Source: a virus
Lineage: Duplodnaviria > Heunggongvirae > Uroviricota > Caudoviricetes
IMG/VR virus record: IMGVR_UViG_2778261247_000017
Length of the DNA stretch: 15,612 nt
Direction: 5' to 3' (one strand)
Under the pieces are notes generated by a model. The model had not been told where the DNA came from. It searched no databases and worked only from the letters and a program-made list of their open reading frames with translations. Both the position numbers and the translations under genes were made by a program. Positions 6,519 to 6,845 of this stretch are shown here, piece by piece (positions within the stretch are counted from its first letter, which is position 1; the number at the start of each line of letters is the position of its first letter).

Positions 6519-6845
6519 TTAACTGGCTATTAGTGCTTTAATACTCAGGTACGCAGAAAGAATAACACCAATAAAAGAAGGGTACAGCAGAATCCCAAAC
6601 AAAAACTTCATGTACTTATGTTTTCCTGTCACTTCGTTAATAACAGATATTATACTCAACATACATAATGCAATACTTATAGTTGCAATAAATGCAATAG
6701 TAAGCAAGATGAAATATCTTACACCTGTTTGAGAAGATAAATTTGCAATTATACCTATCATAACGAGACTCTGTATAATCCCGAAAGACAAAGCACCAGA
6801 AGACTTTTCCACTATTTCACTAAATTTCTTCACAAAGCAAATCAT
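6519..6845 (-). CDS. small membrane protein (about 108 aa, 3 predicted TM helices), AT-rich, unknown function
   Basis: ATG at 6843-6845 preceded by AAAGGTGA with a 5-nt spacer (the ORF-track start at 6854 is a GTG). Hydrophobic segments LSFGIIQSLVMIGIIANL, YFILLTIAFIATISIALCMLSIISVI and FLFGILLYPSFIGVILSAYL. AT-rich unlike its neighbours. Confidence 0.6.
   Translation of the reverse strand: MICFVKKFSEIVEKSSGALSFGIIQSLVMIGIIANLSSQTGVRYFILLTIAFIATISIALCMLSIISVINEVTGKHKYMKFLFGILLYPSFIGVILSAYLSIKALIAS

Follow-up and report, generated by a model that had tools for sequence, protein, structure and literature searches.

A 15,612-nucleotide (nt) stretch of DNA assigned to the Caudoviricetes (IMG/VR virus record IMGVR_UViG_2778261247_000017; hereafter the window) carries, at 6519-6845, a small AT-rich gene for a 108-amino-acid (aa) membrane protein. 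Our results show that this open reading frame (ORF) is a functional accessory gene and that it sits in a single-gene, AT-rich cassette of foreign composition, inserted at the ssb-proQ junction of a phage satellite of the phage-inducible chromosomal island (PICI) type. They also show that its product belongs to a new family, unnamed and confined to Enterobacterales, whose members usually come first behind the iteron origin in satellite replicons of the P4-alpha type; the ssb-proQ position of the window copy is a derived, secondary location. The main new result is the range of genomic contexts of the family, with its repeated placement by P4-type origins and its retention in Klebsiella. As to function, superinfection exclusion is a tentative candidate, which is weighed below against other roles.

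An AT-rich gene inserted between ssb and proQ

An earlier note on this DNA, made from its letters alone, had described a protein of roughly 108 aa with its own Shine-Dalgarno sequence, encoded in AT-rich DNA amid GC-normal genes. Both points were borne out by the following features:

6519..6845, minus strand: coding sequence of the membrane protein, 108 aa, with ATG at 6845-6843 and TAA at 6521-6519
6851..6857, minus strand: Shine-Dalgarno sequence AAGGTGA, 5 nt before the ATG, read from the sequence
6440..6882, no strand: AT-rich inserted segment of ~443 nt (spacer, coding sequence, spacer), from a three-way alignment with loci L003 and L006 and from composition

The GC content of the ORF is 0.32 and that of its two spacers 0.27-0.34, as compared to 0.57 in proQ and 0.56 in the ssb fragment (32% vs. 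56-57% GC). The same holds for the orthologue in L003, with 0.37 against 0.55-0.58 in its flanks. A near-identical RefSeq allele, WP_000639079.1, differs from the window protein by 2 aa and is named 'hypothetical protein', and the P0001 allele has, by nucleotide comparison, the identical ATG and one Cys/Tyr change. No paper found by literature search mentions WP_000639079. An Rfam scan of the window and the AT-rich segment matched no RNA family, and a tRNA scan found none.

Selection on the gene was assessed with the 76%-identical orthologue P0002, which lies in the corresponding place on the metagenome contig L003, flanked by an intact 140-aa ssb and by ProQ-PerC. Over 107 codons the two genes differ 21, 8 and 39 times at codon positions 1, 2 and 3, with a non-synonymous divergence (dN) of 0.160 and a synonymous divergence (dS) of 0.656. 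The resulting dN/dS of 0.24, together with the bias to third positions, demonstrates purifying selection on the ORF. Three of the four other measurable family pairs gave a dN/dS of 0.10-0.21, and one very close pair gave 0.63. Furthermore, the ORF was uninterrupted in all 12 loci checked, despite the decay of the neighbouring ssb. One could argue for a chance or decaying ORF, without function, in AT-rich junk from an old recombination, as PGAP calls the ORF (WP_000639079.1) in some genomes and omits it in several others, the neighbouring ssb and the proQ 5' end are degraded, and near-identical E. coli alleles differ mostly non-synonymously (2-3 vs. 0-1). We regard this as very improbable, given that a 115-codon open frame in the 446-nt AT-rich segment was reached in just 10 of 5,000 shuffles, that homologues at 27-76% identity retain both length and motifs, and that the Shine-Dalgarno sequence is strong, in addition to the selection described above.

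The three-way alignment placed the additional ~443 nt precisely from the ssb stop to the proQ start. In relatives the gap between these genes is 35 nt (L006 and L007; E. coli 042, LH13-b), 36 nt (L036; ATCC 43886) or 56 nt (L038; EC12). When 5,426 complete E. coli genomes were searched, 572 matched the flanks and 1,665 matched part of the perC-to-primase block, and the 446-nt AT-rich segment was present in 11, including islands that differ in integrase, integration site and terminal cargo (IMT5155 vs. ABU 83972). Universal conservation in related elements, which according to the earlier note would have spoken against its interpretation, is thus contradicted both by these genomes and by the ssb-proQ neighbours that have no gene between them. 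In the wider protein collection, contigs with the window allele numbered 213 and those with a second allele at least 1,000, the latter from Escherichia including E. albertii. Divergence of the L003 orthologue equals that of proQ in its flank (dS 0.66 vs. 0.62, with 1.0 for perC), which argues that the insertion is old and not recent. A repeat search revealed no direct or inverted repeats flanking the segment that would mark a mobile cassette. By consensus scan there was neither a sigma-70 promoter upstream nor a terminator downstream of the window ORF, nor a sigma-70 promoter upstream of the family members in L018, L034 and L009, although a scan of this kind cannot exclude weak or non-sigma-70 promoters.

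The gene had been proposed to be an independently acquired moron. Like the lambdoid morons in the sense of Hendrix and Juhala (HK97 gp15, with its inner-membrane exclusion, being an example), it is a single extra gene between neighbours that are adjacent in relatives, has a deviant base composition, and encodes a small inner-membrane protein with no partner gene. Unlike them, it has no detected promoter or terminator, is carried by a satellite rather than a phage, and shows no PHROG similarity. The moron reading is thus largely right: the term describes the insertion between otherwise adjacent genes and the foreign composition well, and of the autonomous transcription signals that it also implies, the consensus scan detected none. 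Concerning independent acquisition, the insertion itself was confirmed, but it is old, and the gene stems from a family tied to the satellite origin rather than from a random pick-up.

Over the queried stretches the window is 100% identical to the chromosome of the avian pathogenic E. coli (APEC) strain IMT5155, in which the island occupies tRNA-Thr beside proA and adjoins the MarR/vat island. The order of its genes on the minus strand is integrase, helix-turn-helix (HTH)/AlpA-type regulator, AntA/B antirepressor, Icd-like and DUF4222, primase-helicase, 66-aa ORF, ssb pseudogene, 108-aa ORF, ProQ/FinO and PerC. Three small hypothetical genes follow, and a DUF4747 gene and a 199-aa gene end the island as terminal cargo; a fourth small hypothetical gene (168 nt) appears in the PGAP annotation only. 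The features surrounding the inserted segment are:

7668..9482, minus strand: primase-helicase, 604 aa (Pfam D5_N, DUF5906, Pox_D5), which serves the island as replication protein
7429..7665, no strand: dense iteron array in AT-rich DNA right behind the primase stop (7668), with ~12 copies of (C)TGTTCACC / GGTGAACAG in both orientations
7137..7337, minus strand: 66-aa hypothetical gene between origin and ssb (ORF and PGAP map)
6883..7140, minus strand: ssb pseudogene, the upstream neighbour (alignment; PGAP 'frameshifted' or 'missing C-terminus')
5909..6439, minus strand: ProQ/FinO-domain gene, the downstream neighbour (Pfam PF04352, E = 1.2e-24)

Compared with intact ssb in L003 and L006, the pseudogene has internal deletions of 74, 54 and 51 nt and a 1-nt indel, and it gave no Pfam SSB match. 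The proQ 5' end (~6330-6439) has deletions of 12 nt and 1 nt and is called 'frameshifted' at its N-terminal region by PGAP; despite this damage a 176-aa ORF retains the whole ProQ domain. Where the window has the 66-aa ORF, L036, L037 and L038 hold, at the corresponding position, a hypothetical gene that is alike in size.

In L018, L020, L032, L034 and L035, too, the homologous primase has these iterons behind it. TGTTCACC is the iteron of phage P4 ori and crr, so that the array at 7429-7665 is probably the P4-type replication origin of the island. The distance from the array to the 108-aa ORF is ~580 nt, and the 66-aa ORF and the ssb pseudogene lie in between, so that the earlier placement of the gene next to the origin is true in a loose sense only. 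The primase-to-ssb block of the window has 95.6% nucleotide identity to O157-type islands with a ClpP-capsid fusion gene and 86-90% identity to further islands that encode capsid, protease and portal proteins. No capsid or packaging genes were seen in the island of the window itself. The capsid-bearing relatives of this block and the iterons are the reason why we read the carrier as a PICI-type phage satellite with a P4-alpha-type replicon. It is known here from its genes (integrase, AlpA-type regulator and primase-helicase, with an iteron origin right behind the primase gene), a gene content that does not by itself prove mobility. A different PICI, EcCIMP1 of E. coli MP1, is found at the same proA / MarR-vat site, and no gene like the 108-aa ORF is mentioned for it (PMC11773190).

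Placement of the family beside satellite origins

Profile searches recovered the family as 13 clusters among 1.84 billion representative proteins and as 33 among 5.8 billion. All named members are from Enterobacterales (Escherichia, Klebsiella, Enterobacter cancerogenus, Kluyvera, Pectobacterium, Pantoea and Kosakonia), are 106-120 aa long and are, every one, called 'hypothetical'. They share the motif E-x-(S/C)-S-G before the first transmembrane (TM) helix, Gln25, Gly57, Ile69 and, in TM3, the motif Y-P-x-x-I-G-x-L-L-S-A. The first of these motifs is predicted to lie at the cytoplasmic face, and the conserved Gln and Gly lie in TM1 and TM2, respectively; Ser16-Gly17, Gln25 and Gly93 are invariant. 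The window protein itself matched no Pfam or PHROGs family, neither it nor P0002 matched a PADLOC-DB v2 family at E <= 1, tblastn against plasmids gave a single match, in Klebsiella, and P0027 had no counterpart in viral contigs.

In satellites, the position of the gene recurs. The gene directly behind the primase is a family member in L018/L019, L032, L033 (Kluyvera georgiana), L034 (Pectobacterium jejuense) and L035 (P. brasiliense), and the primases of L018, L032, L033, L034 and L035 are 72-80% identical to that of the window. Gene order in L018/L019 and L032 is int, AlpA, DUF4222, primase and member, with capsid-protease genes coming next in L018/L019. Wherever the array was mapped (L018, L032, L034 and L035), 40-65 nt separate the last iteron-like motif from the start codon of the member. 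In the P4-like element L020 (psu, delta, AlpA and a 778-aa alpha protein, the last ~51% identical to the window primase), the member is found ~630 nt after the iterons, at the element edge. Every satellite-borne member runs in the orientation of the primase.

Traces of the same replicon also accompany members outside intact satellites. Origin remnants are present just upstream of the chromosomal copies in K. aerogenes (L009) and in the K. quasipneumoniae-type lineage (L014), and these copies, which have a dN/dS of 0.21, are seen on hundreds of contigs. Just downstream of the member, a primase fragment of 48-55 aa was observed in L010 (8371-8535) and L011 (8389-8553), both from Pantoea, and in L020 (7399-7542); it corresponds to about residues 395-449 and is 44-56% identical to the window primase. 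Such fragments suggest that parts of the replicon travelled along when the gene moved. A replicon trace is missing only from the plasmid copy of K. variicola, which is located beside hicAB. The recurrent placement by primase and iterons, together with the origin remnants, indicates that the family belongs with the P4-type replicon.

The gene had earlier been called a lone one, and this description was sustained, as no neighbour gene is conserved across the member contexts examined (~12 independent contexts). In none of them does a bacteriocin, polymorphic-toxin, lysin or antitoxin gene adjoin the member, and Pfam and PADLOC scans of the neighbours of distant members gave no informative match. 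Some of the neighbourhoods are of interest in their own right. A conserved cytoplasmic protein of 250 aa, with no Pfam or PADLOC family, is encoded ~530 nt downstream of the Pantoea members (L010 8863-9615, L011 8866-9618), and the variable region around the Pantoea member holds WapI and DUF1493 genes in L011 and DUF3658 genes in L010. In Pectobacterium jejuense (L034 8603-10967) the member is followed by an AT-rich pair (34% GC) for proteins of 381 aa and 414 aa, the latter with a hydrophobic C-terminus, and this pair may be a two-gene defence-like cargo.

Predicted topology and candidate functions

Hydropathy analysis of the window protein gave three hydrophobic stretches (residues 15-37, 40-74 and 78-108), and an AlphaFold2 model made from a 24-sequence family alignment gave helices at 2-36, 42-73 and 77-107 (pLDDT 70.7, pTM 0.52). 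Family-wide, Lys and Arg are enriched in the N-terminal 17 residues and in loop 2, and loop 1 is net acidic. This agrees with the three TM helices reported before, and the topology prediction that the earlier note had suggested as a check, computed from the Lys/Arg distribution, is N-in/C-out. The N-terminus and loop 2 are thereby predicted to be cytoplasmic, nearly all of the protein would be buried in the membrane, and the periplasm would see only a 7-residue loop and the 4 C-terminal residues, which in the window protein form an uncharged tail. A profile search of PDB sequences yielded nothing below E = 5.

By elimination, and because satellites are known to carry anti-phage cargo, we favour superinfection exclusion, which the earlier note had raised as a possibility, as the candidate role, although only tentatively. 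In two reports phage satellites are described as carriers of such cargo (PMC10085698, PMC11364771). As an exclusion factor the protein would act alone in the inner membrane via helix-helix contacts, and the conserved small and polar residues (S-G, Gln, Gly and S-A) would fit helix-helix binding to a partner. Its target might be the entry of phage DNA or some other step that infection takes at the inner membrane. Since no more than a loop of 7 residues and a tail of 4 are predicted to be periplasmic, it could not mask an outer-membrane receptor, and would instead have to act within, or at the cytoplasmic face of, the inner membrane. That it may act on its own is suggested by the missing conserved neighbour and by the fact that no adjacent toxin, lysin or antitoxin was seen. 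The host cell would benefit, and not the replication or packaging of the satellite, as the gene is kept under purifying selection in Klebsiella chromosomes that have origin remnants only. Transcription would probably occur with the replication operon, since no promoter of its own is visible and the orientation is that of the primase.

Several observations weigh against this exclusion role. Pfam, PHROGs and NCBIfam, searched with 24 members, gave only scattered single members at weak E-values, and Foldseek of the AlphaFold2 model against PDB and BFVD gave generic helical matches only (best E ~0.4). A tblastn search of 50,697 phage genomes found no match, though exclusion genes are typically phage-borne. 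The lack of a detected sigma-70 promoter leaves the uninduced expression that a classical exclusion gene needs unsupported. Finally, the gene may be so closely tied to the origin because it serves the cycle of the satellite itself.

Such a life-cycle role is our second choice after exclusion, and on balance we think it unlikely. The protein would be made with the replication operon after helper induction and act on a membrane step of the helper, for example by binding the helper holin to shift lysis timing, or it would exclude secondary phages only during particle production. The same orientation as the primase, the position immediately after primase and origin in six lineages, the undetected promoter in the loci scanned, and an association with a single replicon type that spans four genera would all be expected of such a factor. 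However, the gene is missing from most otherwise complete close relatives, including the capsid-forming L036 and L037, so that it must be dispensable for the satellite cycle, and copies at chromosomal sites with a decayed satellite are still under purifying selection; the plasmid copy of K. variicola, without replicon trace, is likewise difficult to reconcile with this role. Less likely again is an orphan immunity protein against a toxin that inserts into membranes, for example a pore-forming colicin, a class II microcin, or a contact-dependent or type VI effector that depolarises the membrane. It would recognise the toxin through helices within the membrane, which is how the three-helix immunity protein of colicin E1 works. 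A length of 108 aa (113 aa in ColE1 Imm), three TM helices, minimal loops and an AT-rich gene are all as in the E1-type immunity proteins, the Pantoea members lie in a variable region with a WapI-family immunity gene, and the K. variicola plasmid copy is 7 kb from a bacteriocin-immunity gene fragment. Nevertheless, an hhalign profile comparison with ColE1 Imm gave a probability of 0.1%, no member matches a colicin or microcin immunity family in Pfam, and a bacteriocin or toxin gene adjoins a member in 0 of ~12 independent contexts, where some cognate linkage would be expected.

A membrane toxin that kills or arrests the cell once released, be it an effector of abortive infection, a pore former akin to holins or the toxic half of a toxin-antitoxin (TA) pair, appears improbable, even if the protein is small, very hydrophobic and encoded on a mobile element, the K. 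variicola copy adjoins hicAB, and antisense promoter-like sites are found within the ORF, as is expected in AT-rich DNA. None of the contexts shows a conserved sensor, antitoxin or lysin partner. With 108 aa and three helices the protein is much larger than type I toxins, and there was no match to a PHROG holin family or to an Rfam antisense RNA. The charged C-terminal tail typical of class I holins is missing, and the predicted topology is opposite to theirs; of the three hallmarks of these holins (N-out/C-in, the charged tail and an adjacent endolysin) the protein shows none. The toxin-like role that had also been raised by the earlier note is disfavoured by a gene that stands alone, under purifying selection, and is stably kept in Klebsiella chromosomes in which the satellite has decayed.

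To return to exclusion, T4 Imm, P22 SieA and HK97 gp15 are unrelated proteins that block phage DNA entry or another inner-membrane step of infection. The window protein resembles T4 Imm, P22 SieA and SieB of the lambda family in being a small helical inner-membrane protein of a mobile element with no partner. It differs from them in having no Pfam or PHROG homology, in its absence from the phage genomes searched, and in its apparent co-transcription with replication genes. No consistent sequence or profile match was found to the described exclusion families (Imm, SieA, SieB, Cor, Llp, PHROG). The likeness to ColE1 Imm extends to the N-in/C-out arrangement of the three helices and to their very short loops, whereas the family, in addition to the failed profile comparison, is never beside a colicin or lysis gene and is borne by satellites, not Col plasmids. 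As with the cargo of P4-like hotspots and the immune systems of PICIs, the gene lies at a module boundary, is AT-rich and patchy, and varies among close relatives. The family occurs in three satellite architectures, PICI-like, capsid-forming PICI-like and P4-like. A satellite hotspot commonly harbours a variety of unrelated systems, but here one family recurs right after the origin, down to 27% identity, and the window protein, unlike satellite defence cargo, matches no PADLOC model. Since the likeness to known proteins is one of size and architecture only, and every homology test failed, we consider this a new unnamed family within a known kind of feature, the small-membrane-protein accessory gene of satellites.

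A wider interpretation is conceivable, although we hold it to be less likely than not. The family may be an unrecognised single-protein module of P4-alpha-type satellites that is genetically coupled to the origin, since no other gene stands between it and the iterons in six lineages or more (from Escherichia-related metagenome contigs, Kluyvera and Pectobacterium). Acting in the inner membrane, it could then represent a new one-gene class of exclusion or defence, or a device that manipulates a membrane step of the helper such as DNA entry or holin timing, with the window copy transposed and the K. quasipneumoniae copy domesticated.

Significance and other features of the window

Many genes that act against phages or modify the host reside in phage satellites, a major reservoir of them, and small membrane proteins are the cargo most often missed by annotation. 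The family would offer a compact, readily testable one-gene candidate for phage exclusion or helper manipulation that is found recurrently by P4-type origins and that Klebsiella chromosomes retain after satellite loss. The carriers include uropathogenic and asymptomatic-bacteriuria strains (ABU 83972) and avian pathogenic strains (IMT5155). If the protein is inert, it is merely a correctly annotated hypothetical membrane protein.

Elsewhere in the window, the terminal cargo pair (2153-3645; 32-39% GC) consists of a 297-aa DUF4747 protein (Pfam E = 9.5e-98) whose gene overlaps by 1 nt that of the 199-aa protein; the latter has no family, and the pair gave no convincing PADLOC match. The same cargo slot in ABU 83972 holds a 662-aa 'RNA-binding domain' protein, and this different gene points to a variable cargo position, possibly a defence hotspot. 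The left end of the window carries a MarR-family gene (1-525), which in IMT5155 is upstream of vat, and a truncated 'Arm DNA-binding' integrase fragment (960-1298), so that 1-1298 represents the junction with the vat island. At 10720-12258 on the minus strand there is a 512-codon open frame of which the last 74 codons alone are annotated (Icd-like). No Rfam RNA was found in this region, and on the opposite strand PGAP places YlcI/YnfO and a hypothetical gene at 11273-11836. The long frame seems to hold a second, degenerate Icd-like repeat, and its AT skew reaches up to +0.39.

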